Virus record (IMG/VR): IMGVR_UViG_2778261509_000004
Span: 1-12,467 of that record
Length of the DNA: 12,467 bases
Source of the DNA: a virus
Lineage: Duplodnaviria > Heunggongvirae > Uroviricota > Caudoviricetes
Direction: 5' to 3' (one strand)
In this document: piece after piece, positions 89 to 12,467 of the stretch
Position numbering within the stretch: the stretch's first letter is position 1
How the letters are laid out: every line of letters begins with the position of its first letter
Notes under the pieces: generated by a model
Database searches by the model: none
The model's input: only the letters and a program-made list of their open reading frames with translations
What the model was told of the DNA's origin: nothing
Translations under genes and position numbers: made by a program

Positions 89-184
89 ATATCCAAGCCT
101 ATCTCTTATTTTAAGATACATCTACTGTCTGGTATTTCAGGGGGCCAGCTCACAAAGTCCTTTAAAGAACAGTTAAGTCGATAT

Positions 185-688
185 ATGAATGGTATGAATG
201 TATATCCATTCATTAGAATACCTTTTGATAGCATATCTTTCACTAAGGCTATGATTGGGCACGTGCTATCAGCAACTTCAGTTGAAGATTGTAAAAAAGA
301 ACCCGTAGATAGCCCCTTCTATACACCTTTAAAGGATTATGTTTTGGGTAAAAATTCAAGTTTTGAGGAAACTCATGATATTTACTACTGGTTTTACCCA
401 CACAGAATGCACATATCCGCTCAAAGTGTAGCATTTATGAACGAAGGACATGTGGCATTTATTTGTGCTTTACATTTTTTTCCTATCGGTTTTATTATCA
501 CAATGAAAAATGAAGGAACATACCCTGCCCACTCTACAAAATTAGAACTTGAAGATAAATTCCTTACATTTAATATGACCTCTATAAATTATGAGTATAC
601 GACATTTCCATTTGTAAATCTTAAGGGAAACCAAATGTATGCGATAAGCAACGGTCATACTTGTGTGAGTTATCCAATAATTAAGTGA
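185..688 (+). CDS. hypothetical protein (167 aa) in a low-GC block; function unknown
   Basis: A 504-nt ORF is unexpected by chance in AT-rich DNA, where stop codons are frequent. No recognisable motif in the translation and no strong RBS before the first ATG (alternatives at codons 4 and 23). Composition is clearly lower in GC than the rest of the window, by eye. Confidence 0.4.
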   Translation: MNGMNVYPFIRIPFDSISFTKAMIGHVLSATSVEDCKKEPVDSPFYTPLKDYVLGKNSSFEETHDIYYWFYPHRMHISAQSVAFMNEGHVAFICALHFFPIGFIITMKNEGTYPAHSTKLELEDKFLTFNMTSINYEYTTFPFVNLKGNQMYAISNGHTCVSYPIIK

Positions 689-741
689 CGGCTAAATCAT
701 ACAATCTACGCATGTTCACTTTCTACATATACCATCTATAA

Positions 742-767
742 TGTCCGCTGTTGGCACAAAGCGGACA
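742..767. other. inverted repeat TGTCCGCT-N10-AGCGGACA between convergent genes
   Basis: An 8-bp perfect stem (742-749 pairs with 760-767) around a 10-nt loop, between the 3' ends of the 185-688 ORF and the 835-1257 gene. No U-tract on either strand, so not a canonical intrinsic terminator. Confidence 0.3.
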
Positions 768-834
768 ACCACGCTAGCTCTACCCTGTGCCACAAAATGT
801 CAATTTGCATCTGAACTAATGCACTTTAATCTCG

Positions 835-1257
835 TCACTTCAATAAATACCGAACATCACCCTGATAAAACGACAATATGCGCTGCATAACTTCACTCTT
901 CCGGCACTCGCGACAGATTATGTTCTGACGCCTGTCGTAGCGACGTATTTCTCCGTCAGGTAATGACCAGATAAGGTCCGGATCAACCGCAGATGGTTTC
1001 TTCAGCTTTGCCCTTGAGAGCTTTTTACGGGCATTTTGCCAGTCCTTACGCGCCTGTTCAGACGGGAATAACCCGTAACCAGAGTTGTATACATCGCCGC
1101 TGGCAACCAGCTCTCTTGCGAGAACGCTCATCAGATATCTTGTCGCACCTGTCTTGACTTCCAGTTGCCGTAACGTCTCGCGTCCACTCCGGCGTACTAG
1201 CTCAACAACCTGCCCTTTAATTTTTTCCCGCTCTTCCTGTGTAAAAACTTTTGCCAT
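835..1257 (-). CDS. hypothetical prophage protein (140 aa from the ATG at 1257)
   Basis: ORF-track ORF 835-1272. I chose the internal ATG at 1257 because GGAGG lies 5 nt upstream on the coding strand; the track start at 1272 is a TTG that abuts the upstream stop. Tightly packed behind the replication genes on the same strand. No recognised motif. Confidence 0.65.
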   Translation of the reverse strand: MAKVFTQEEREKIKGQVVELVRRSGRETLRQLEVKTGATRYLMSVLARELVASGDVYNSGYGLFPSEQARKDWQNARKKLSRAKLKKPSAVDPDLIWSLPDGEIRRYDRRQNIICRECRKSEVMQRILSFYQGDVRYLLK

Positions 1258-1272
1258 AAGCGCCTCCGGCAA

Positions 1273-2034
1273 TCACTTTTCCGACACAATACGACTGGAG
1301 GAATCGACAATCTGTCGGACAATATCCCGGTGCTTGTTCAGCTCCCGCAGCGCGGCGCAGACTCGCTCCCACTTCTGGACATGATTTTTCGCCCGACGCA
1401 GTTCGCGGTTTGCCATATGCAGCGATGGTAAAACCAGGTCATCCGCTTGCGTTTCAGTAAACGATGGCAGCGACTGCACAATGTCCGCCACAGTTTCTGT
1501 TTTAATATCTTCCTGTGTTGCCGCTTCCTGTACTGGTAACGCAACACCGGCTGGCTGAGGAAAGGCTTTACCATCAGTTTCCGCTACCGATGCAGCTTTC
1601 GGCTCTGCTGGTAAATTATCGCCCGGCATGCAGTAACGAAATTTACCGTTCTGATTAACGCGAATCAGACGACCTTTACTGATTGCCATTGCCAGCGTTG
1701 AAGCCACTTTGCGTGATGTGATGCCGAAAAACGTAGCCAGTTCATCCGCCGTTTGTGGGCCACGTTGTTCAATCGTCGCAGTTAAATCGCACTCCGAAAT
1801 TTTTGCGACTGTTGCCGTGGTGGTTTCTTCCGGCAGTTCTGCCTGCTCTGGCTGTTCCTGCTGAACGTTGTTATCAGCCACGCGCCAGGTGTATACGCTT
1901 TTATCAACGAAGCCAGCCTTTTTCAGTTCCCACAGCTCGTTCAGCACTTCTTCACGACTGATATCAAGTCGCGCAGCCAGTTCTACCGACGTAGCTTTCC
2001 CCATTGCTTTCAGTGCGTCAAAAACAGTCTCCAT
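1273..2034 (-). CDS. hypothetical protein with two putative winged-helix-like segments joined by an acidic linker (253 aa from the ATG at 2034)
   Basis: ORF-track ORF 1273-2085. The ATG at 2034 ([13 protein letters not shown]) is preceded by GGGAGA about 10 nt upstream and leaves a 22-bp gap after the DnaC-like stop. Two segments look HTH-like: [32 protein letters not shown] and [35 protein letters not shown]. The fold assignment is inference from sequence pattern only. Confidence 0.65.
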
Positions 2035-2056
2035 TAAATTTTTCTCCCGGTAAAAA

Positions 2057-2803
2057 TTACTTCGCAATTCCTGGCTGGACGACATTCGGACGCCAGCTCT
2101 CCCAGTTAAAATTCACCCATCGCCCGCCGTTCATGGTCATGCGATCCATAATCCGCTCGCCGAGCAATGTTTTCATGGCCTCATAGTTCAGGTTTGTCAG
2201 CATTCCCACGCTACGCATCGACGCTGTCCGTCGATCAATAATCTGGTGCAGTACCACCTGCTCGTTTTTCGTCTCGCGCTGAATGCCAATTTCATCAAGA
2301 ACCAGCAGATCCACTTCGCACAGTTCCCGCAAAAATTTTTCGCCTGACTGCCCGTCGTCATAGCTGGCGTGGAGGGCACTCATAACATCAGCCACGGTAA
2401 CCACAATCACTGTCTGACCGTCTTTCAGCAGGCGATTCCCGATAGCTGCCGCTAAGTGATTCTTCCCGGTACCAGGTTTTCCGCTGAACGCAAAATTTGT
2501 ACACCCGGTCATCAGTTCATCAGCGATGGATTTCGCCTGACTCAACGCGTATCGCTGCCCTTCGTTCTGCACCTGGTAATTCGAAAACGAGCATTTGCGG
2601 TGCAATGGCTGGATGCCAGAGCGATTCAGAATTTTTTCCACCCGCAACTGACGATTCTGACGGTTGATCTCCTCACAACGTTTCTGGCCTTCGGAAAGTT
2701 GCCACTCGCGCCACTCCGCTACCGTCTTGAATGGCGCGGTTACATGTGACGGGGCCAGTCTGCGGATACGTTCAAGAACGTCGCCTGTCGCAATATTTTT
2801 CAT
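2057..2803 (-). CDS. DnaC-like AAA+ helicase loader (phage replication protein P functional analogue; YdaV-like)
   Basis: Walker [16 protein letters not shown] and Walker [10 protein letters not shown] in the translation, as in DnaC/IstB-family ATPases. GGGGG RBS 9-13 nt upstream. Start lies 6 bp after the stop of the upstream O-like gene, suggesting translational coupling. Confidence 0.9.
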
Positions 2804-2809
2804 GGTCAG

Positions 2810-3598
2810 TTACCCCCTGAAGCCTGGCGGGATCGCACTATCCGGTAACGAGACGGTGTTAACCTGTCGGAGTAACGTCTCAGGTCGAACACCTTTCGGC
2901 GCGAACAAGCCCTGGTATTCGTTGGCGATGCTGTGTCGAATCACCTGCTCAGGTGAAAAACCCTGCTGGCGGAATTTTTCCAGCTCCCGTATCGCCCCGT
3001 TAGCGCCCTGCTCCGTTCGAATCGGTTTTCGCAATGCCTGCCTGAACTGAACCCACTCATGCCAGAGTGTTTCCGGCAACCAGTCAGGCAGCTCGATAGC
3101 CTCCGGTTCGAATTTTTTAGACGCTCGTTTTTGGCGAGGGGGATTTAGGGGGAGATAAGTATTTATATCTTCCTCTTTCTCTTCCTCTGGTAACGCTTTT
3201 TGATCCGTTTTTGTAACGCTGGCAGCGTTACCTTTTCGTTTCAGTTCTCGTATTTTTGTTACTCTCTCGTTTGTAACCGCCCGTTTTTTAGAGCTTTTCC
3301 CGTTATGGCGCTCAAAGTTAGGAAGCGACAACACACCATTAGTTTCGACCAGCCATCCAACCTGAATTAACGCATCAGCAAAACCAGCCATAAAAGTGAT
3401 GCGATCTATTGCACTTTTTGTAACGCCGCGAGCGTTACACTCTGCGTTACCGTCTATCATTTGTTGATCCGCCCATGCCCAGAAGCGAATGACTTTCCCT
3501 AATGCGGCATCTGGATCAATATTCAGAATCTCAGCAAGCCTGAATATTTCCGGCTTATCCGGCGTAATAACTTCGAGCTTTATCCAGTTTGAAGCCAT
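2810..3598 (-). CDS. putative replication initiator / replisome organiser (lambda O-like position; YdaU-like)
   Basis: 262-codon ORF immediately upstream of the DnaC-like gene on the same strand. Two 19-bp palindromes lie inside the coding sequence and a third just upstream, like iterons within lambda O. Function is inferred from synteny and the repeats, not from a recognised catalytic motif. Confidence 0.6.
   Translation of the reverse strand: MASNWIKLEVITPDKPEIFRLAEILNIDPDAALGKVIRFWAWADQQMIDGNAECNARGVTKSAIDRITFMAGFADALIQVGWLVETNGVLSLPNFERHNGKSSKKRAVTNERVTKIRELKRKGNAASVTKTDQKALPEEEKEEDINTYLPLNPPRQKRASKKFEPEAIELPDWLPETLWHEWVQFRQALRKPIRTEQGANGAIRELEKFRQQGFSPEQVIRHSIANEYQGLFAPKGVRPETLLRQVNTVSLPDSAIPPGFRG
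3213..3231. repeat. 19-bp palindrome GTAACGCTGGCAGCGTTAC (copy 1 of 3), candidate origin iteron or operator
   Basis: Perfect dyad GTAACGC-N5-GCGTTAC read directly from the sequence. Extra half-sites nearby: GTAACGC at 3190-3196 and GTAACCGC at 3273-3280. Confidence 0.7.
3420..3438. repeat. 19-bp palindrome GTAACGCCGCGAGCGTTAC (copy 2 of 3)
   Basis: Perfect dyad, same arms as copy 1 with a different 5-bp centre. Followed by an extra half-site GCGTTAC at 3444-3450. Confidence 0.7.
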
Positions 3599-3611
3599 TT
3601 GTTTTCACCTT

Positions 3612-3630
3612 GTAACGCTCGCAGCGTTAC
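3612..3630. repeat. 19-bp palindrome GTAACGCTCGCAGCGTTAC (copy 3 of 3), about 14 bp upstream of the O-like start codon
   Basis: Perfect dyad with the same arms, positioned in the 5' leader of the O-like gene where an operator would sit. Confidence 0.7.
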
Positions 3631-3640
3631 ATTTAACTGA

Positions 3641-3662
3641 TACCGAACAAAACAGTTCGGTA
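3641..3662. other. inverted repeat TACCGAAC-N6-GTTCGGTA in the ydaT / O-like intergenic gap
   Basis: 8-bp perfect arms around a 6-nt spacer, located between the ydaT stop (3676) and the O-like start (3598). No U-tract follows on the transcribed (minus) strand, so a protein-binding site or RNA hairpin is more likely than a terminator. Confidence 0.35.
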
Positions 3663-3675
3663 CGATTAATTTCAA

Positions 3676-4098
3676 TCAATGCACTACGACAGAATCGCTA
3701 GGAGAACCGCCGCCGCTGAAATGCGCTTTCCGGTAAACGGCTTGGACTGCATCATCATGCGCATCAATTGCCGTACTTAACGCTTCCTGCGCCGCCAGTA
3801 ATGCACGGCGTTCCAGGGTATCGAAGATGCAGAGTCGGTGACGCAGCTCGCGCGGAAGGATTGCCAGAATTGCTGGGATCAGCTTCTGAATTTTTTCCCT
3901 TTGCGCATTCGTTTCACCTTTCAACCAACGGTGATAGATATTCTGCTGATTGTTCCAGTCCTTGCCTGGAACCAGGGGCAATTCGCCGCCCCCCTGGCGC
4001 AGATATTCTTCAGTAATTGCATTGGCTACCCATGCCTGCCCTTTTTCGGCTGCCAGGGCAAACAACACCGATTCGATGTGCTCATGCTTGATTTTCAT
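3676..4098 (-). CDS. ydaT: YdaT (Rac-prophage toxic protein, reported as a CII functional analogue)
   Basis: 140-codon ORF whose translation (MKIKHEHIESVLFALAAEKGQAWVANAITEEYLRQGGG...) matches my recollection of Rac YdaT in length and sequence. Lies directly downstream of ydaS on the same strand. Confidence 0.8.
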   Translation of the reverse strand: MKIKHEHIESVLFALAAEKGQAWVANAITEEYLRQGGGELPLVPGKDWNNQQNIYHRWLKGETNAQREKIQKLIPAILAILPRELRHRLCIFDTLERRALLAAQEALSTAIDAHDDAVQAVYRKAHFSGGGSPSDSVVVH

Positions 4099-4120
4099 GA
4101 ATCATTTGCCTCTTGATGTT

Positions 4121-4417
4121 TCAGGTATGATCAAATGAGGATTTGTTACTGTCATTTAGTTGCTTCACTGACATATTCTGCGAACAACATGCCGAACGTC
4201 GTAAATATGACCAGTCAATATCAGGACGAAGTTCTTCGCACAGCACCTCACCTCTTGTTGCACGTTCAATTGCTGGACATCTCTCGGCAGGCAATTGACG
4301 TACCCCTTTGATCCATTGATTTACGCTTGGAGGTGATACACCTAAAAGCCTAGCCATTGCTGTTTGCCCACCGACAACAGCACAAGCTTGCTTGAATGAA
4401 TAGTTCTCTTTTTTCAT
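4121..4417 (-). CDS. ydaS: YdaS, Cro-like HTH regulator (XRE family)
   Basis: 98-codon ORF with an HTH-like segment (FKQACAVVGGQTAMARLLGVSPPSVNQWIKG). GGAG lies 9-10 nt upstream of the ATG. Divergent from racR across an operator-rich 123-bp gap, the classic cro/cI arrangement. Confidence 0.8.
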   Translation of the reverse strand: MKKENYSFKQACAVVGGQTAMARLLGVSPPSVNQWIKGVRQLPAERCPAIERATRGEVLCEELRPDIDWSYLRRSACCSQNMSVKQLNDSNKSSFDHT

Positions 4418-4444
4418 CGAATGAACTCCAAAAACACACAGAGG

Positions 4445-4521
4445 TATTAGGCGACGCCTAATACAAATGTCAATAGGCTATGCCTAATACAATGAGAGTA
4501 GGGATTGCCTAATGCAATGAG
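4445..4521. promoter_or_regulatory. OR-like operator/promoter region between racR and ydaS
   Basis: Perfect 19-bp palindrome TATTAGGCGACGCCTAATA at 4445-4463. Palindrome TAGGC-TAT-GCCTA at 4474-4486. Three direct repeats of GCCTAAT(A/G)CAA at 25-bp spacing starting 4457, 4482 and 4507. On the minus strand there is a perfect -35 TTGACA (plus coordinates 4468-4473), with a weak -10 (TAATAC, 18-bp spacer) overlapping the big palindrome, a plausible ydaS promoter. On the plus strand a TACAAT -10 at 4488-4493 has no good -35, a plausible activator-dependent racR promoter. Confidence 0.6.
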
Positions 4522-4540
4522 CATAGGAGAATATTAAGCA

Positions 4541-5017
4541 ATGCTTAGTGGTAAAGACTTAGGCCGAGCGATAGAGCAGGCCATTAACAAAAAAATCGCA
4601 TCGGGATCCGTCAAATCAAAGGCGGAGGTCGCACGCCACTTCAAAGTCCAACCACCATCAATCTATGACTGGATTAAGAAAGGCTCCATAAGTAAAGATA
4701 AACTTCCAGAATTATGGCGTTTCTTTGCTGATGTTGTTGGTCCAGAGCATTGGGGGCTTAACGAATACCCCATACCAACCCCCACCAATCCAGATACAAA
4801 AAGTGAACTTTTAGATATAAACAACCTTTATCAAGCAGCCTCTGATGAAATAAGAGCGATTGTAGCTTTCCTGTTATCTGGAAATGCTACAGAACCAGAT
4901 TGGGTTGACCACGATGTTCGCGCCTACATAGCAGCGATGGAAATGAAAGTGGGTAAGTATCTGAAAGCTCTAGAATCTGAACGGAAAAGCCAGAACATCA
5001 CAAAAACTGGAACTTAA
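4541..5017 (+). CDS. racR: RacR, Rac prophage repressor
   Basis: 158-codon ORF whose translation (MLSGKDLGRAIEQAINKKIASGSVKSKAEVARHFKVQPPSIYDWIKKG...) matches my recollection of RacR. AGGAGA RBS upstream. Divergent from ydaS. Confidence 0.85.
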   Translation: MLSGKDLGRAIEQAINKKIASGSVKSKAEVARHFKVQPPSIYDWIKKGSISKDKLPELWRFFADVVGPEHWGLNEYPIPTPTNPDTKSELLDINNLYQAASDEIRAIVAFLLSGNATEPDWVDHDVRAYIAAMEMKVGKYLKALESERKSQNITKTGT

Positions 5018-5092
5018 ACTTATATGGTCTGACGGAAAACTCCTGGATTCCGTTATTTAACCCCCCCCATCACTTTCTCCAGTCGCCATCAC

Positions 5093-5157
5093 CTATTAGG
5101 TTACGCTTAAAACATTAGGCATAGCCTATTTACAATCAATTAGGCATTACCTATAGT
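5093..5157 (+). promoter_or_regulatory. OL/PL-like promoter-operator cluster driving the rightward early operon
   Basis: Near-consensus sigma70 promoter: -35 TTTACA (5129-5134), 17-bp spacer, -10 TATAGT (5152-5157). Operator-type motifs overlap it: TAGGC-ATA-GCCTA palindrome at 5116-5128, TTAGG half-sites at 5096, 5115 and 5140. The 15-mer TTAGGCATAGCCTAT (5115-5129) is the exact reverse complement of 4473-4487 in the racR/ydaS operator region. Confidence 0.6.
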
Positions 5158-5326
5158 TCCAGCATACCACCCACCCCGCCCCACAGAACGCCAGGCAATA
5201 CTTCGAGTTACCAGGCAGTGGTCAGGGGTTAAGTAGCCAGCCCGAGGCGTATGAACATGACGGCGGGATTCAAATTTTGCAGTGCAGCAGTTAGTTCCGC
5301 CACCCGGCGTTAAGGGGATAGATAAG

Positions 5327-5461
5327 ATGGTGCATTACGAAGTAGTTCAGTATTTGATGGATTGTTGCGGTATCACTTACAACCAGGCTGTGCAGGCTTT
5401 ACGCAGCAACGACTGGGATCTCTGGCAGGCAGAAGTCGCTATACGTAGCAACAAGATGTGA
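5327..5461 (+). CDS. ydaG: YdaG-like small protein (44 aa)
   Basis: ATG at 5327 preceded by GGGGA. Translation MVHYEVVQYLMDCCGITYNQAVQALRSNDWDLWQAEVAIRSNKM. Length and position (between racR and sieB) match Rac ydaG. Below the ORF-track size cutoff. Confidence 0.6.
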   Translation: MVHYEVVQYLMDCCGITYNQAVQALRSNDWDLWQAEVAIRSNKM

Positions 5462-5471
5462 GATTCGCAAA

Positions 5472-5627
5472 ATGCAAAAAATCGACCTCGGCAACAACGA
5501 ATCCCTGGTGTGCGGCGTGTTCCCCAACCAGGATGGAACGTTCACTGCCATGACGTATACCAAAAGCAAAACATTTAAAACCGAAACTGGTGCGCGCCGA
5601 TGGTTGGAGAAGCACACAGTAAGCTAA
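5472..5627 (+). CDS. ydaF: YdaF-like small protein (51 aa)
   Basis: ATG at 5472. Translation MQKIDLGNNESLVCGVFPNQDGTFTAMTYTKSKTFKTETGARRWLEKHTVS. Length and position match Rac ydaF. Its stop codon overlaps the sieB stop on the opposite strand. Confidence 0.55.
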   Translation: MQKIDLGNNESLVCGVFPNQDGTFTAMTYTKSKTFKTETGARRWLEKHTVS

Positions 5628-6112
5628 CGATTAAAACGTCTACTCCTGCTGTTCCAGAATAACTTCATAAAATGGGAGTATTTTTCGGTGACGAGATAAT
5701 AAGAACAGTTTGCGCTATCACTCTGATGTTGAATGATGCCCTTCCGTTCTAATTTTTTCATAACCGGGTTACGGCAAGGAGAAGTGATAATAAGATTTCC
5801 TGTTTTAAGGAAATCTTTAAATACAGCGATTTCTTTCTCAGATAAACGAAGCAATACTCGTTGCTCTGGTAGTAATGAATAATGCTTTTGAATATGTGCT
5901 CGCAATCTTGAGAAGGAAATGGCGACCACGAAAGAAAAGGCAAAAACGATAATCTGAAAGAGCCAAGGTATTTCAGTATAAGCATTGAATGCGACAGTAA
6001 ACTCTTTCGGTATCAGCCAGAGAGTGAGACCAAAAATGATAATCGTATACATAAGTCTTTCGAGTGGCTCGTTAGCAAAAAGTTTCAACAATGGAGTAAA
6101 TACATCCAACAT
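5624..6112 (-). CDS. sieB: SieB, superinfection exclusion protein (162 aa from the ATG at 6112)
   Basis: Translation from MLDVFTPLLKLFANEPLERLMYTIIIFGLTLWLI... matches my recollection of Rac SieB, with a hydrophobic N-terminal segment consistent with a membrane protein. The ORF-track version is extended to 6235; I prefer the 162-codon form. Confidence 0.75.
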   Translation of the reverse strand: MLDVFTPLLKLFANEPLERLMYTIIIFGLTLWLIPKEFTVAFNAYTEIPWLFQIIVFAFSFVVAISFSRLRAHIQKHYSLLPEQRVLLRLSEKEIAVFKDFLKTGNLIITSPCRNPVMKKLERKGIIQHQSDSANCSYYLVTEKYSHFMKLFWNSRSRRFNR

Positions 6113-6330
6113 ATCAATAACTCTCAACTGTAAGGGTATTGAAATGTTAACACAAGCTCTCGCTGTAGGGGTATAGCCGAGACCACCGAAGCCCGGAGGT
6201 GGTGAAATAAAACCGGGCACAACACGAAGGCGCATTTCCGATATCCATAAAGAGTCGGTCTTGTCTGTTAAATTTAAATGGTGGGAGTGCGCCTCCGGTT
6301 GTAAATAACGACATTGCTGTGTGTAGTCCT

Positions 6331-6372
6331 GGCGGCATCAGTTTTTTTCTTGAAGTTCGGCTGATGTCCGCC
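6331..6372. other. long imperfect inverted repeat GGCGGCATCAG-N19-CTGATG(T)CCGCC followed by CTTTTT
   Basis: 11-bp arms with a one-base bulge around a 19-nt loop, inside the ~440-bp non-coding gap between sieB and kilR. The loop is too long for a typical intrinsic terminator; could be a protein-binding dyad or structured RNA. Confidence 0.3.
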
Positions 6373-6553
6373 CTTTTTAAAGTGAGTTTTGTGATGCGGT
6401 GAATGCGGCTAAGCGCACGTGGCACAGTTAAAAGTCATGTTAGTCCTTATTGGTTTGGGTGGGAAAGCCGACTGTAATTGTTAACTGGTTGCAGTCACCT
6501 GGAGGCACCAGGCACCGCATCAACAAAGTTCATTTGTAAAAATGGAGATAATT

Positions 6554-6775
6554 ATGATTGCACATCACTTCGGAACTGATGAAATACCACGTCAGTGTGT
6601 GACTCCTGGCGATTATGTTCTTCATGAAGGCCGGACATATATTGCCTCGGCAAACAATATTAAAAAGCGAAAGCTTTATATTCGTAACCTGACCACAAAA
6701 ACATGCATTACTGACTGCATGATTAAAGTCTTCCTCGGTCGTGATGGTTTACCTGTAAAGGCGGAGTCATGGTGA
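6554..6775 (+). CDS. kilR: KilR, cell-division inhibitor of the Rac prophage (73 aa)
   Basis: ATG at 6554 preceded by GGAG (6544-6547). Translation [73 protein letters not shown] matches recalled KilR length and sequence. Confidence 0.8.
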
Positions 6776-6945
6776 TGACTAAGAAAATAAAATGTGCTTA
6801 CCACCTTTGCGATAAAGAAGTTAAAGAAAGCAAAAGCATTAAAAGACCACTTCATTTCATGCGTGGAGTTATCCCAACGACGGAAATGAAAAAATATTGT
6901 AGTGAAATATGTGCCGAAAAAGACCAGATGGCACACGAACTTTAA
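6775..6945 (+). CDS. ydaE: YdaE-like small Cys-rich protein (56 aa), putative zinc-binding
   Basis: ATG at 6775 overlaps the kilR TGA (ATGA coupling). Translation [56 protein letters not shown] contains a C-x4-C ... C-x3-C pattern. Below the ORF-track cutoff. Confidence 0.7.
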   Translation: MTKKIKCAYHLCDKEVKESKSIKRPLHFMRGVIPTTEMKKYCSEICAEKDQMAHEL

Positions 6946-7019
6946 TTAACTGACTATGCGAAACTGAATTTATGCCAGCAATGGCAGGGATTCGCTCAAC
7001 CTTAATTAAGGAGAAAAAC

Positions 7020-7295
7020 ATGATTACCAGTTATGAAGCCACTGTTGTAACTACTGATGACATTGTTCACGAAGTTAATCTGGAAGGAAAGCGTATTGGC
7101 TACGTGATTAAAACAGAAAATAAAGAAACCCCATTCACTGTAGTTGATATCGACGGTCCATCAGGCAACGTTAAAACACTTCACGAAGGTGTCAAAAAAA
7201 TGAGCCTGGTGCATATCGGAAAGAATCTGCCCGCAGAAAAAAAAGCCGGATTTCTGGCAACTCTGATTGCAATGAAATTAAAAGGTGAAATCTGA
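7020..7295 (+). CDS. racC: RacC (91 aa), function unknown
   Basis: ATG at 7020 preceded by AGGAG (7010-7014). Translation MITSYEATVVTTDDIVHEVNLEGKRIGYVIKTENKETPFTVVDIDGPSGNVKTLHEGVKKMSLVHIGKNLPAEKKAGFLATLIAMKLKGEI matches recalled RacC. The ORF-track start at 6972 is probably too far upstream. Confidence 0.8.
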   Translation: MITSYEATVVTTDDIVHEVNLEGKRIGYVIKTENKETPFTVVDIDGPSGNVKTLHEGVKKMSLVHIGKNLPAEKKAGFLATLIAMKLKGEI

Positions 7296-7300
7296 AAGAA

Positions 7301-7325
7301 ATAGCCTGCGTATGGCGCAGGCTAT
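7301..7325. other. perfect 10-bp stem-loop ATAGCCTGCG-TATGG-CGCAGGCTAT between racC and recE
   Basis: Read directly from the sequence. On the plus strand no U-tract follows it; on the minus strand it is followed by ATTTCTTTCA. Candidate attenuator or RNA-stability hairpin. Confidence 0.4.
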
Positions 7326-7396
7326 GAACAGTGTGTATCCGGCAAGATCATTCACTGAACAAAACGAATTTTAATCTGAGTTGAGGTTAAAAAACA

Positions 7397-10300
7397 ATGA
7401 GCACAAAACCACTCTTCCTGTTACGGAAAGCGAAAAAATCATCCGGTGAACCTGACGTCGTCCTGTGGGCAAGTGACGATTTTGAATCGACCTGTGCCAC
7501 TCTGGACTACCTGATCGTTAAGTCAGGTAAAAAACTGAGCAGCTATTTTAAAGCTGTTGCCACGAATTTTCCTGTCGTTAATGACCTGCCCGCTGAAGGT
7601 GAGATCGATTTTACCTGGAGTGAACGCTATCAACTCAGCAAAGACTCCATGACATGGGAACTAAAACCGGGAGCAGCACCAGACAACGCTCACTATCAAG
7701 GCAATACCAACGTCAACGGCGAAGACATGACTGAGATTGAGGAGAATATGCTACTCCCAATTTCTGGCCAGGAACTGCCCATTCGTTGGCTTGCTCAACA
7801 CGGCAGCGAAAAACCGGTAACGCACGTTTCACGCGACGGACTCCAGGCATTACACATTGCTCGGGCTGAAGAACTACCGGCTGTTACTGCCCTGGCTGTT
7901 TCCCACAAAACCAGCCTGCTCGCCCCGCTGGAAATTCGCGAACTCCACAAACTGGTTCGTGACACTGACAAAGTTTTCCCTAATCCTGGTAATTCAAACC
8001 TGGGACTGATAACTGCTTTTTTCGAAGCATACCTGAACGCTGACTACACCGATCGAGGACTGCTGACAAAAGAGTGGATGAAGGGTAATCGTGTTTCACA
8101 CATCACTCGCACGGCTTCCGGTGCTAATGCTGGCGGCGGAAACCTCACCGATCGCGGCGAAGGTTTCGTACACGATCTGACGTCACTGGCGCGCGACGTA
8201 GCCACTGGCGTACTGGCCCGTTCAATGGATCTGGACATCTATAACCTTCATCCGGCACACGCTAAACGCATTGAGGAAATTATCGCTGAAAATAAACCGC
8301 CCTTTTCTGTTTTCCGCGACAAATTCATCACCATGCCTGGCGGGCTGGATTATTCCCGCGCCATCGTGGTTGCGTCCGTAAAAGAAGCACCAATTGGGAT
8401 CGAGGTCACCCCCGCGCACGTCACTGAATATCTGAACAAAGTACTGACTGAAACCGATCATGCCAACCCTGATCCGGAAATCGTGGATATTGCCTGCGGT
8501 CGCTCCTCTGCCCCGATGCCGCAGCGAGTAACAGAAGAAGGAAAACAGGATGATGAAGAAAAACCGCAACCATCTGGAACAACGGCAGATGAACAGGGAG
8601 AGGCTGAAACAATGGAACCGGACGCAACTAAACATCATCAGGACACGCAGCCGCTGGATGCTCAGTCACCGGTAAATTCTGTTGATGCGAAATATCAGGA
8701 ACTGCGGGCAGAACTCCATGAAGCCCGGAAAAACATTCCATCAAAAAATCCTGTCGATGCCGATAAATTGCTTGCTGCATCACGTGGTGAATTTGTTGAC
8801 GGAATTAGCGACCCGAACGATCCGAAATGGGTTAAGGGGATCCAGACTCGCGATTCTGTGTACCAGAACCAGCCAGAAACGGAAAAAACCAGCCCGGATG
8901 TGAAACAACCTGAGCCAGTAGTGCAACAGGAACCGGAAATAGTCTGCAATGCCTGCGGTCAGACTGGCGGAGATAACTGCCCTGACTGTGGGGCGGTGAC
9001 GGGCGACGCAACATACCAGGAAACATTCGATGAAGAGAATCAGGTTGAAGCTAAGGAAAAAGATCCGGTGGAAATGGAAGGCGCTGAACATCCGCACAAT
9101 GAGAATGCTGGCAGCGATCCGCATCGTGATTGCAGTGATGAAACTGGTGAAGCGTCAGCTCCTGTAGCAACTGAAATCATGTGGCCGTCATATTTCGAGC
9201 CTGGCCGCTATGAAAACCTCCCGAACGAGGTTTATCACTCCGCCAACGGAATAAGCAGCACGATGCTGAAGGATGCCCGTATCAGCCTGATGTATTACCA
9301 CGGACGGCACATTGCCGGAACTATTCCGAACGAGGAAAGTGATGCACTGCTGCGTGGGCGGATCATTCACAGCTATGTTCTGGAAACGGATAAATTCGCT
9401 GATGAATATGCCATTCCGGTACCAGTTCCTGAATATGTGGTTACTACTTCTAGCGAACTGATCGCCATCATTAAAAAACACAATGCCAGTCTGCCAGCAC
9501 TGATGACACCAGAGCAGATGAAAGAGTGGATCGAAAGCTACAACAGCACTCTTATACAGCCACTGTCTGTAAGTGCTGGAGCCGAAGAAACAGGCATCCT
9601 TTACGGTTCGCTTCCGGTGGAATTCCGGCGTATTCCGGAGGAGGAGAAACATACTGCATCGGCAATGAAAGCCTGCATTAGAGAATACAATGCAAACCTC
9701 CCTCCTCTGTTGAAAACCAGTGGAACACGGGAGCAACTTCTGGAGCAAATTGAAACTGTAGATCCAGAACTGGCGAAAAAAGAACGTGCTAAATCTTTGC
9801 CTTACAACATCAGTGGCACGAAAGAGCAATTAACCGAAATCGCTCGGAAAATCCGCCCGGAACTGGTTACCCTGGAGGACTGGCAAAAACGCCAGCAAGA
9901 AGAAAACGCCGGGAAAACGTTTATCAGTTCAGATATGTATGAACAGGCAAAAAATATTCACGCTGCACTGCAAAACAATACTGATGCAGCAAGGCTACTC
10001 AACCACCCGGATCGCAAATCTGAAATCAGCTATTTCGGGTTTGATGAAGAAACCGGGCTGGAAATCAGGGTCCGTCCTGATATCGAAATCCGGCTGCCAT
10101 ACGAAAGCATTTGCGCCGACGTGAAGTCAGTCAGCCTCGGTTATGTGCGACAGGAACGACTGAAAGATCGCCTGCACCGTGAAATTATTGAGCGTGATTA
10201 TCACCTCAGCGCAGCAATGTATTGCGATGTGGCAAATCTGGACAAATTTTTCTGGATCTTCGTCAACAAAGATGCTGGCTATCACTGGGTGGCAGTCGTG

Positions 10301-10468
10301 GAAGCCTCGCAGGAACTCCTGGAACTTGGTCGACAGGAATATCGCCGGACGCTACGCCAGATAAACGAAGCCCTGGAGACAAACAACTGGCCAGCACCGA
10401 TTACCGAAAGTTATACCGACGAATTAAACGACTTTGATCTTCGTCGTCTTGAAGCACTGAGCATCTGA
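7397..10468 (+). CDS. recE: RecE-family exodeoxyribonuclease VIII (1023 aa) with a C-terminal PD-(D/E)xK-type nuclease domain
   Basis: N-terminus [24 protein letters not shown] matches recalled RecE. The C-terminal third carries YH...GIS and RPD...DVK motifs. It also has an acidic low-complexity linker and a C-x2-C-x7-C-x2-C knuckle ([16 protein letters not shown]). Longer than the 866 aa I recall for K-12 RecE. Confidence 0.85.
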
Positions 10469-10479
10469 GGAAGGACACA

Positions 10480-11532
10480 ATGAACGAATTAACTCAACAA
10501 GAAAATATTAACTCTAATGTTGCGGTTTTCAGCCCTCAGTCCCTGGCTGCAATTCAGACATTTTCCCAGGTAATGGCTTCCGGCATGGCTACTGTACCGG
10601 AACACCTCCGGGGAAATCCATCAGACTGCATGGCCATCACCATGCAGGCGATGCAGTGGCAAATGAACCCTTACGCAGTAGCTCAGAAAACTTTCGTTGT
10701 GAATGGTGTGCTCGGATATGAAGCGCAACTGGTTAATGCCGTAATCAGTACTCGTGGGCCGCTAACCGGGCGTATTGAATATGACTGGTTCGGGCCGTGG
10801 GAAAAAATTATCGGGAAATTTGAAATCAGGAAGAGCGACAAAGGGAAAGAATATCGTGTACCTGGCTGGAAGCTGGCCGATGAAAACGGGATCGGTGTTC
10901 GTGTCCAGGCAACACTACGCGGCGAAAGTAAACCACGCGTACTGGAATTACTTCTGGCGCAGGCCAGAACACGTAATTCAACGCTATGGGCCGACGATCC
11001 TCGCCAGCAGCTTGCCTATCTGGCGCTGAAACGCTGGGCGCGCCTTTATTGCCCCGAAGTGATTCTTGGAGTGTACACCAGGGACGAACTGGACGAGCCA
11101 CAGGAAAAAATCATTAATCCGGTTCAGGAACATAAAAACACTTCCGCTTGCCGCGCGGAACGTGAAACAACAATTATTGAGCAGGATGCCGGGGAAAACT
11201 GGATCGATGCTTTCCGTGAACGTATTGAGCAGGCACAAAGCACCGGGGAAACAACAGCACTTCGCCAGGAAGTGGAAGATCATAAAAATACACTTGGCGC
11301 TCTCTATACGGAACTTAAAGGAAAAGTGGTTCAGCGTCATCACCGTCTCAATGCTATTGCCCGTATCGAGAAGATGATAAATGACCTACCTTCTTCAGGT
11401 GATCCAGAAGCAGAACAAAAATTTACTGCTCTGGAAAATACGCTGAATGCTGCCCGGCCACATCTGGGTGAATTATATGAGGCGTATAAAACGACACTGA
11501 CAGATATGAAACCAGAATATATCGGCTCCTGA
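10480..11532 (+). CDS. putative single-strand annealing protein partnered with RecE (RecT/Red-beta-like; 350 aa)
   Basis: Starts 12 bp after the recE stop with a GAGGAAGGA RBS, the classic exonuclease-then-annealase order. A segment (AITMQAMQWQMNPYAVAQKTFVVNGVLGYEAQLVNAVIS) loosely resembles the conserved core of Red-beta/RecT. It does not match the 269-aa K-12 RecT I recall, so the family call is tentative. Confidence 0.55.
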   Translation: MNELTQQENINSNVAVFSPQSLAAIQTFSQVMASGMATVPEHLRGNPSDCMAITMQAMQWQMNPYAVAQKTFVVNGVLGYEAQLVNAVISTRGPLTGRIEYDWFGPWEKIIGKFEIRKSDKGKEYRVPGWKLADENGIGVRVQATLRGESKPRVLELLLAQARTRNSTLWADDPRQQLAYLALKRWARLYCPEVILGVYTRDELDEPQEKIINPVQEHKNTSACRAERETTIIEQDAGENWIDAFRERIEQAQSTGETTALRQEVEDHKNTLGALYTELKGKVVQRHHRLNAIARIEKMINDLPSSGDPEAEQKFTALENTLNAARPHLGELYEAYKTTLTDMKPEYIGS

Positions 11533-11542
11533 TATTTACTTT

Positions 11543-11580
11543 GGCGGTGTAGCCTCACCGCCATCACAAAATTTTATTTT
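11543..11580 (+). terminator. possible intrinsic terminator or attenuator after the annealing-protein gene
   Basis: GC-rich hairpin GGCGGTG-TAGCCT-CACCGCC (11543-11562) followed by ATCACAAAATTTTATTTT. The U-rich run is separated from the stem by several nt, so termination would be partial at best. Confidence 0.4.
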
Positions 11581-11595
11581 ATGAGAGAAAAGACA

Positions 11596-11790
11596 ATGCG
11601 GTATGAAAAAGTCAAACCATGCCCTTTTTGTGGTTGTCCATCAGTAACGGTGAAAGCCATTTCAGGATATTACCGCGCGAAGTGTAACGGATGCGAATCC
11701 CGAACCGGCTATGGTGGAAGTGAAAAAGAAGCACTCGAACGATGGAATAAACGAACCACTGGAAATAATAATGGAGGTGTTCATGTATAA
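11596..11790 (+). CDS. ralR: RalR/Lar restriction-alleviation protein (64 aa)
   Basis: Translation MRYEKVKPCPFCGCPSVTVKAISGYYRAKCNGCESRTGYGGSEKEALERWNKRTTGNNNGGVHV with C-x2-C ... C-x2-C matches recalled Lar. The ORF-track start at 11581 has no RBS; the ATG at 11596 has AGAGA upstream. Confidence 0.75.
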   Translation: MRYEKVKPCPFCGCPSVTVKAISGYYRAKCNGCESRTGYGGSEKEALERWNKRTTGNNNGGVHV

Positions 11791-11971
11791 AATTACCGCC
11801 ACTATTGAAAAGGAAGGTGGCACTCCTACTAACTGGACAAGGTACTCAAAAACAAAATTAACCAAATCAGAATGCGAAAAAATGCTCTCAGGTAAAAAAG
11901 AAGCAGGCATTTCCAGAGAGCAGAAAGTAAAACTGATAAATTTTAATTGCGAGAAACTTCAGTCGTCGTGA
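11783..11971 (+). CDS. ydaC: YdaC-like small protein (62 aa from the ATG at 11783)
   Basis: Strong GGAGG (11773-11777) 5 nt before the ATG at 11783, which overlaps the ralR stop. Position between ralR and xisR matches Rac ydaC. Exact start and identity are uncertain. Confidence 0.5.
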   Translation: MYKITATIEKEGGTPTNWTRYSKTKLTKSECEKMLSGKKEAGISREQKVKLINFNCEKLQSS

Positions 11972-12070
11972 ATTGCATTGTATTCAAATTAAAACTTCAT
12001 AGCTGATTATTAATAATCAACATCGGGCGTCAATTTCAGTCTAACATTGGCGCCTGCCAGAGGTGATGCG

Positions 12071-12286
12071 ATGGCACAAGTAATCTTTAATGAAGAGTGG
12101 ATGGTTGAATACGGCCTGATGCTTCGCACTGGTCTGGGGGCCAGACAAATTGAAGCATACCGCCAGAACTGTTGGGTGGAAGGCTTCCACTTCAAACGAG
12201 TATCTCCTTTAGGGAAACCAGACAGTAAGCGAGGGATTATCTGGTACAACTATCCAAAGATAAATCAGTTTATCAAAGACTCATGA
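12071..12286 (+). CDS. xisR: Rac-type excisionase-like protein XisR/YdaQ (71 aa)
   Basis: ATG at 12071 preceded by AGGTGA. Translation [71 protein letters not shown]. Lies immediately upstream of the integrase start, whose ATG (12288) follows the xisR stop by one base. Confidence 0.7.
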
Positions 12287-12287
12287 T

Positions 12288-12412
12288 ATGTCTAAATTAC
12301 CAACAGGTGTCGAGATTCGAGGTAAATACATTCGCATCTGGTTCATGTTTCGAGGAAAACGATGTCGGGAAACATTGAAAGGCTGGGAGGTTACTAACAG
12401 TAACATTAAAAA
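12288..12412 (+). pseudogene. intR: integrase 5' fragment (N-terminal arm-binding region), interrupted by IS1
   Basis: Translation from 12288 reads MSKLPTGVEIRGKYIRIWFMFRGKRCRETLKGWEVTNSNIKK, a typical Rac/P22-type integrase N-terminus. The reading frame then enters the IS1 end and stops at TGA 12431-12433. Confidence 0.75.
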
Positions 12413-12467
12413 GGTAATGACTCCAACTTACTGATAGTGTTTTATGTTCAGATAATGCCCGATGACC
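12413..12467 (-). mobile_element. IS1 terminal region (inverted repeat plus 3' end of insB), truncated by the window edge
   Basis: GGTAATGACTCCAACTTACTGATAGTGTTTTATGTTCAGATAATGCCCGATGAC matches the recalled IS1 end with about two mismatches. The rest of the element lies outside the window. Confidence 0.85.
12428..12466 (-). CDS. insB: IS1 InsB C-terminal fragment (last 12 codons plus stop)
   Basis: Reverse complement of 12428-12466 reads GTC ATC GGG CAT TAT CTG AAC ATA AAA CAC TAT CAG TAA = VIGHYLNIKHYQ*, as recalled for the insB 3' end. Confidence 0.55.
   Translation of the reverse strand, partial: VIGHYLNIKHYQ

Follow-up and report, generated by a model that had tools for sequence, protein, structure and literature searches.

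The window analysed here, 12,467 nt in length, is the entire contig NLPY01000086.1 of the draft assembly GCA_002231095.1. This is a short-read assembly, and the contig terminates in repeats on both sides, an IS3-family terminus on the left and an IS1 end on the right. The left end (about 1-151/152) belongs to an ISEc48-like element, ends with TGTCTGGTATTTCAGGGGGCCAGCTCA, much like IS2, and splits a hypothetical prophage gene (WP_000161640.1, 269 aa) of which E. coli strains LR-21-1 and RM10740 have an unbroken copy. In RM10740, 23 places match this IS3-family end.

The window represents the early part of a Rac-like prophage inserted at ttcA. Complete E. coli genomes match positions 152-12412 at 100.0%, among them LR-21-1, RM10740, PEC422 and several pig ETEC strains. 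In LR-21-1 the matching stretch is annotated DUF977, DUF1627, ydaV, ydaT, ydaS, racR, ydaF, sieB, kilR, ydaE, recE (1023 aa), a RecT-family recombinase gene (350 aa), ralR, DUF1187, xisR and intR, followed by the host genes ttcA and dbpA. This annotation, together with Pfam searches of the window, reveals a Rac-like early synteny comprising racR, ydaS, ydaT, sieB, kilR, recE, recT, ralR, xisR and intR. Moreover, IntR is encoded beside the excisionase at the prophage end that abuts ttcA, as is the case for the Rac-type integrase. Integration at ttcA has been described for Rac, Sp10 and CP-933R (PMC4632033).

Three gene products in this region differ in length from their counterparts elsewhere. 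The sieB reading frame (5624-6235, minus strand) encodes 203 aa from an upstream ATG, and the same sequence is annotated as 162 aa in LR-21-1, a discrepancy that reflects an ambiguity in the choice of start codon. RecE and the RecT-family protein (window 7397-11532) measure 1023 and 350 aa, versus 866 aa for RecE and 277-280 aa for RecT in other Rac-like loci.

At the right end of the window, xisR is intact, and LR-21-1 and RM10740 carry the same stretch under the annotation xisR (WP_000079604.1). Its TGA stop occupies 12284-12286 and the ATG of intR follows 1 nt beyond, at 12288. The features of this end of the window are listed in the table.

Features of the window, with emphasis on the right junction
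Feature	Position	Strand	Remarks
ORF, 167 aa	185-688		Exact protein match on NLPY01000086.1
xisR (excisionase XisR, 71 aa), intact	12071..12286	+	Pfam PF06806, putative excisionase, E 6e-21
intR 5' fragment, codons 1-41 plus 2 nt, Rac-type tyrosine integrase	12288..12412	+	Equals the first 125 nt of LR-21-1 intR
Fusion ORF, 48 aa: 42 IntR residues plus VMTPTY from the IS1 end	12288..12434	+	From the ORF list; stop TGA 12432-12434
Left copy of the 9-bp target-site duplication CATTAAAAA	12404..12412	.	Same 9 nt at NLPY01000008.1 56-64
IS1 end (IRR / insB 3' side), first 55 nt of the element	12413..12467	-	55/55 to IS1F-type copy
IS1 terminal inverted repeat	about 12413-12435
Last 12 InsB codons plus stop	12428-12466	-	Translation VIGHYLNIKHYQ*, the InsB C-terminus

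The two junctions and the reconstructed intR

The fusion ORF encodes MSKLPTGVEIRGKYIRIWFMFRGKRCRETLKGWEVTNSNIKK followed by VMTPTY and a stop. Native intR sequence ends at 12412, and the first G of IS1 supplies the last letter of codon 42, giving AAG (Lys) where the native gene has AAA; in the intact relatives, intR continues with ...AACATTAAAAAAGCCGGG... at the break point. Pfam detects the PF12167 arm-DNA-binding domain at residues 5-43 of the 48-aa product (positions 1-39 of the 65-position profile, E 2e-14), and the resemblance to an integrase is not a matter of chance. An exact protein look-up of the 48-aa product found nothing on record, and an exact search of the GTDB species representatives gave no match to the left junction, as was to be expected with a source outside the representative set.

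Over all 55 positions, window 12413-12467 agrees with IS1 copies (E 9e-20; in 5,674 records the best match reaches 99% identity or more), and the matching records are annotated as IS1 or IS1F family transposase. These 55 nt match 55/55 an IS1F-type copy adjoining fecI in strain 503025, versus 53/55 for IS1A.

The other side of the insertion was traced through the remnant of the gene. We built intR remnants in silico, assuming that IS1 duplicates 8-10 bp, and looked up their products by exact protein match. ATG-start versions of 309 aa and 338 aa were on record and led to contig NLPY01000008.1 (123,823 bp) of the same assembly, the 309-aa product being encoded at its very beginning; versions starting at the TTG within IS1 (MAASP.../MAALP...) and versions of 363 aa and 337 aa were absent from the protein collection in the same exact look-up. 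Positions 1-55 of NLPY01000008.1 are the last 55 nt of an IS1F-type element, ending ...CAGTAAGTTGGCAGCATTACC. They are followed by CATTAAAAA at 56-64 and then by AGCCGGGAAT..., that is, by intR from nt 126 to its stop. ttcA (PF01171) lies 51 nt beyond the intR remnant, with dbpA and zntB further on. The same right junction is present in the Logan assembly SRR3993777, which is identical to NLPY01000008.1 over 11,111 nt.

The 9-bp sequence CATTAAAAA is present as a single copy in native intR. When the IS1 and one copy of the duplication are removed, window 12288-12412 and NLPY01000008.1 65-1175 together form a gene of 1,236 nt, whose 411-aa product is identical to the IntR of LR-21-1 (WP_072014550.1) and of RM10740. 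In the rebuilt protein, Pfam places the arm-binding domain PF12167 at residues 5-69 (E 2e-26) and the catalytic domain PF00589 at 205-391 (E 3e-23); in the source strain, these two domains are separated by the IS.

The two IS1 ends fit one another. Window 12413-12467 and NLPY01000008.1 1-55 are, respectively, the first and the last 55 nt of the IS1F-type copy of strain 503025, on the same strand, and the terminal inverted repeats of IS1 (GGTRATG...CCAACTTA...) are found at both ends in opposite orientation. What is visible amounts to 110 of the approximately 768 bp of IS1 and, as InsB coding sequence, to its last 12 codons, the interior of the element having collapsed in the short-read assembly. 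Each contig ends precisely 55 nt inside the IS, and we interpret this as a break made at a repeat by a short-read de Bruijn assembler using k = 55. From the matching ends and the duplication, NLPY01000086.1 and NLPY01000008.1 appear to be adjacent across one IS1.

These observations agree in nearly every respect with the original prediction of an IS1 insertion cutting the integrase after about 41 codons. The sequence from 12413 on is indeed an IS1 end, as its 55/55 identity to annotated IS1 copies establishes, and insB lies on the minus strand, since the InsB C-terminus (VIGHYLNIKHYQ*) is translated from 12428-12466 on that strand. The cut after about 41 codons is correct (125 nt, or 41 codons and 2 nt); the start proposed at 12283 is not, the ATG at that position being out of frame and 5 nt early with respect to the true ATG at 12288. 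The rest of the IS, its target duplication and the 3' part of the integrase gene had been expected beyond the window, and extension to the right, as had been advised, recovered the other IS1 end, the 9-bp CATTAAAAA and the complete remainder of intR on NLPY01000008.1. A simple insertion was thereby supported over an in-frame resumption of the integrase: the reading frame does not resume unless the IS is taken out. The advised comparison with strains carrying an intact intR gave a concordant answer, as LR-21-1 and RM10740 possess the full gene and its reading is restored in the source strain on removal of the IS.

Age of the insertion and state of the prophage

Apart from the IS, intR carries no mutation, and xisR is intact. 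Over the 12,261 nt of window 152-12412, two SNPs separate the prophage from LR-21-1, both of them intergenic (4444 and 5131), and over the whole prophage sequence available (window 152-12412 plus the prophage part of NLPY01000008.1) the count is still two in about 13.4 kb. The chromosomal flank shows 0 mismatches in 3000 positions to RM10740. This identity, together with the tracing of the contig to GCA_002231095.1, spoke against a Shigella source, an idea prompted by the lack of the junction in complete E. coli genomes. Both of these strains have an intact intR. The insertion is thus very recent, given an otherwise unchanged gene, two SNPs to one intR-intact strain and a flank indistinguishable from that of another; by this sequence comparison, the lesion is more recent than any point mutation in intR. 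As to the two SNPs themselves, one falls in the divergent ydaS-racR promoter region and the other downstream of racR.

A megablast search of 5,426 complete E. coli genomes returned, among its top-ranked records, no contiguous match across the xisR-intR-IS1 junction, and a look-up of the neighbouring DUF1187 protein found only loci with an intact 411-aa integrase. Apparent full-coverage matches in the megablast search turned out to be IS1 insertions at other sites, for instance between rcbA and xisR. In strain 2017.13.01CC, which carries a K-12-like Rac, an IS1B overlaps the 3' end of recT and an IS1A lies between rcbA and xisR (1832-2529 and 3139-3906). The insertion in intR is an ordinary strain-specific mutation of a kind already known.

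The near-identity to LR-21-1 ends within the 5' end of ttcA, coinciding with the Rac att site; past approximately codon 11 of ttcA, the chromosome differs from that of LR-21-1 at 26 of 2,889 positions. This break of similarity at the att site suggests that nearly the same phage integrated recently into different E. coli backgrounds.

It had also been proposed that the loss of the integrase would make the prophage a domesticated cryptic element. This view is not supported, as removal of the IS restores a perfect gene, two SNPs distinguish the prophage from that of an intact strain, and the relatives have head, tail and lysis genes. Indeed, the prophages of LR-21-1 and RM10740 are full-length and lambdoid, about 48-50 kb long, with terminase, portal, capsid, tail and lysis genes and trkG, so the loss of morphogenesis or lysis functions which, along with selected genes kept over the long term, marks a cryptic prophage was not found in either; the window itself covers the early region only. 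The picture suggested is that of a recently active phage now struck by IS elements rather than an old, domesticated remnant.

Both relatives have lesions of their own. The LR-21-1 prophage has an IS1A in the lysozyme gene rrrD, and that of RM10740 has an IS3-family element and an IS1A near a DUF1971 gene as well as an internal stop in one head-tail gene.

Probable consequences for excision

Our preferred explanation is that one IS1, with ends identical to an IS1F-type variant, transposed into codon 42 of intR and duplicated the 9-bp AT-rich target CATTAAAAA, as is usual for IS1. The gene hit encodes the tyrosine integrase of this prophage, a Rac-like lambdoid element inserted at ttcA. The 48-aa product would retain about 60% of the arm-binding domain and neither the core-binding nor the catalytic domain, and the 369-codon remnant would be left with no promoter, ribosome-binding site or proper start. 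From a 48-aa fragment and a start-less remnant we therefore infer that the prophage would have no functional integrase and no site-specific excision of its own. We hold it to be very probable that a single, very recent IS1 insertion with IS1F-type ends and a 9-bp duplication in codon 42 accounts for the locus, and that self-excision would be lost with it.

In K-12, excision of Rac is driven by XisR together with IntR, RacR repressing both, and it is the cells' escape from YdaS/YdaT toxicity (PMC4632033, PMC11014345). In the strain studied here, XisR would still be made, with no functional integrase to act beside it. Upon derepression, the prophage would then replicate or kill in place instead of leaving, and the K-12 route of escape from YdaS/YdaT by excision of Rac would be closed. 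A precedent exists in O157 Sakai, where Sp3, Sp11 and Sp12, whose integrases are disrupted, were predicted to be incapable of excision and did not figure among the prophages found in circular form, and where the Rac-like Sp10, with an intact int, was excised, packaged and transferred (PMC2669165).

Could excision nevertheless persist? An N-terminally truncated integrase might be made from the remnant, or a compatible integrase might act in trans. There is an in-frame, TTG-initiated ORF of 377 aa that spans the IS1 end and the remnant, the TTG within the IS1 end being the only in-frame start upstream of the remnant, and IS1 ends can create hybrid promoters. In addition, prophage-prophage complementation is documented in O157 Sakai, some defective prophages being mobilized with the help of others (PMC2669165). 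Against this, a scan for plus-strand promoter-like sites upstream of the remnant found none, no Shine-Dalgarno sequence was seen on reading the start of NLPY01000008.1, and the TTG-start product would be deprived of residues 1-39 of the arm-binding domain (PF12167 spans 5-69). For lambda Int, arm-dependent integration and excision both need this domain. A second copy of the intR integrase, moreover, is rare: in complete genomes intR is almost always single (median 1 place per genome, maximum 2). Residual excision seems very unlikely to us. Loss of autonomous excision, by contrast, would follow on good grounds from the disruption of the gene, and the prophage is most likely unable to leave the chromosome by its own means.

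A second alternative concerns what lies between the two junctions. They may flank not a single 768-bp IS1 but a composite transposon, or the two halves of intR may have been parted by later IS1-IS1 recombination, through inversion or translocation. Both contigs stop within the IS; the stop at exactly 55 nt suggests that the genome has several IS1 copies with identical ends, and in RM10740 the xisR-intR-IS1 query matches 21 places, presumably IS1 copies for the most part. Nevertheless, the two ends come from opposite termini of a single IS1 variant, both on the same strand, and they are accompanied by a perfect 9-bp duplication and a seamless intR, which is the signature of a simple insertion. 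We regard the more complex arrangements as very unlikely, and a composite transposon would inactivate intR equally.

That the junction is an assembly artefact, or an insertion confined to a minority of the sequenced culture, is hardly credible in spite of the short-read draft and the repeats at both contig ends: the assembly recovered both junctions, whose ends are reciprocal and whose duplication matches, SRR3993777 agrees on the right one, and no intact-intR path breaks the contigs at the junction, where a mixed population would have broken them at 12412 and not 55 nt into the IS.

Recurrent insertions and comparison with known systems

With a single IS1 insertion as the preferred reading, the event can be set among others of its kind. 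The same intR allele has been struck twice independently, by IS1 at nt 125 here and by IS2 at about nt 234 in the Logan assembly SRR33800841. In the latter, intR is interrupted at about codon 78 by TGTCTGGAGATTCAGGGGGCCAGTCTA (SRR33800841, 1-60), which we take to be an IS2 end. In intact form, the allele is known from 472 contigs. IS1 has repeatedly struck the recT-to-xisR part of Rac-like prophages at different sites, and the present insertion is one of several independent IS hits on copies of this prophage in different strains.

One might go further and propose that IS knock-outs of intR are recurrent because they are selected, either locking in useful genes or serving as a switch that precise excision of IS1 would reverse. 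The genes retained by such locking may include recE, the RecT-family gene, ralR, sieB, kilR and trkG. We find this proposal highly doubtful. IS insertions in prophage genes, integrase genes included, are known to be commonplace, and IS1, IntR and Rac-like prophages are each familiar from earlier work.

The significance of the finding is local, and our understanding of IS1, of tyrosine integrases and of prophage decay is unchanged by it. It adds one more example of a lambdoid prophage, active until recently, that is decaying through IS insertion. It also corrects the annotation, in that intR here is an IS1-split pseudogene and NLPY01000086.1 and NLPY01000008.1 would be neighbours across one IS1, and it leads to the prediction that the Rac-like prophage of this strain cannot excise or transfer unaided.

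IS1 elements are about 768 bp long, encode InsA and, by a programmed -1 frameshift, InsAB', and duplicate 9 bp (occasionally 8 bp) of their target. The present element conforms to the family in its 9-bp duplication, its AT-rich target and the InsB C-terminus VIGHYLNIKHYQ. Both visible termini are identical, at 55/55 each, to the IS1F-type copy adjoining fecI, whereas the visible ends differ from IS1A at 2/55 and 6/55 positions.

Among prophages, the closest parallel is Rac of K-12. There too, intR adjoins ttcA, with the att site in the 5' end of ttcA (PMC4632033). The gene order is likewise racR, ydaS, ydaT, sieB, kilR, recE, RecT-family gene, ralR, xisR, intR, and the K-12-type intR (MG1655 record) is 96.6% identical at the DNA level. 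The two differ in size, K-12 Rac being a 23-kb remnant whereas near-identical relatives have a complete prophage, about 48-50 kb long. They differ also in the integrase, as K-12 intR is intact and Rac still excises (PMC4632033), whereas intR here is split by IS1. This lesion, an IS1 at codon 42, is not among the top-ranked records of the 5,426 complete E. coli genomes.

Sp10 and CP-933R are similarly Rac-like prophages at ttcA, and Sp10 is lambdoid with an ExoVIII-type recombination module; in contrast to the prophage described here, the integrase of Sp10 is intact, and the phage genome is excised, packaged and transferable (PMC2669165). For a lambdoid prophage with a disrupted integrase, Sp3, Sp11 and Sp12 of O157:H7 Sakai provide the precedents (PMC2669165).
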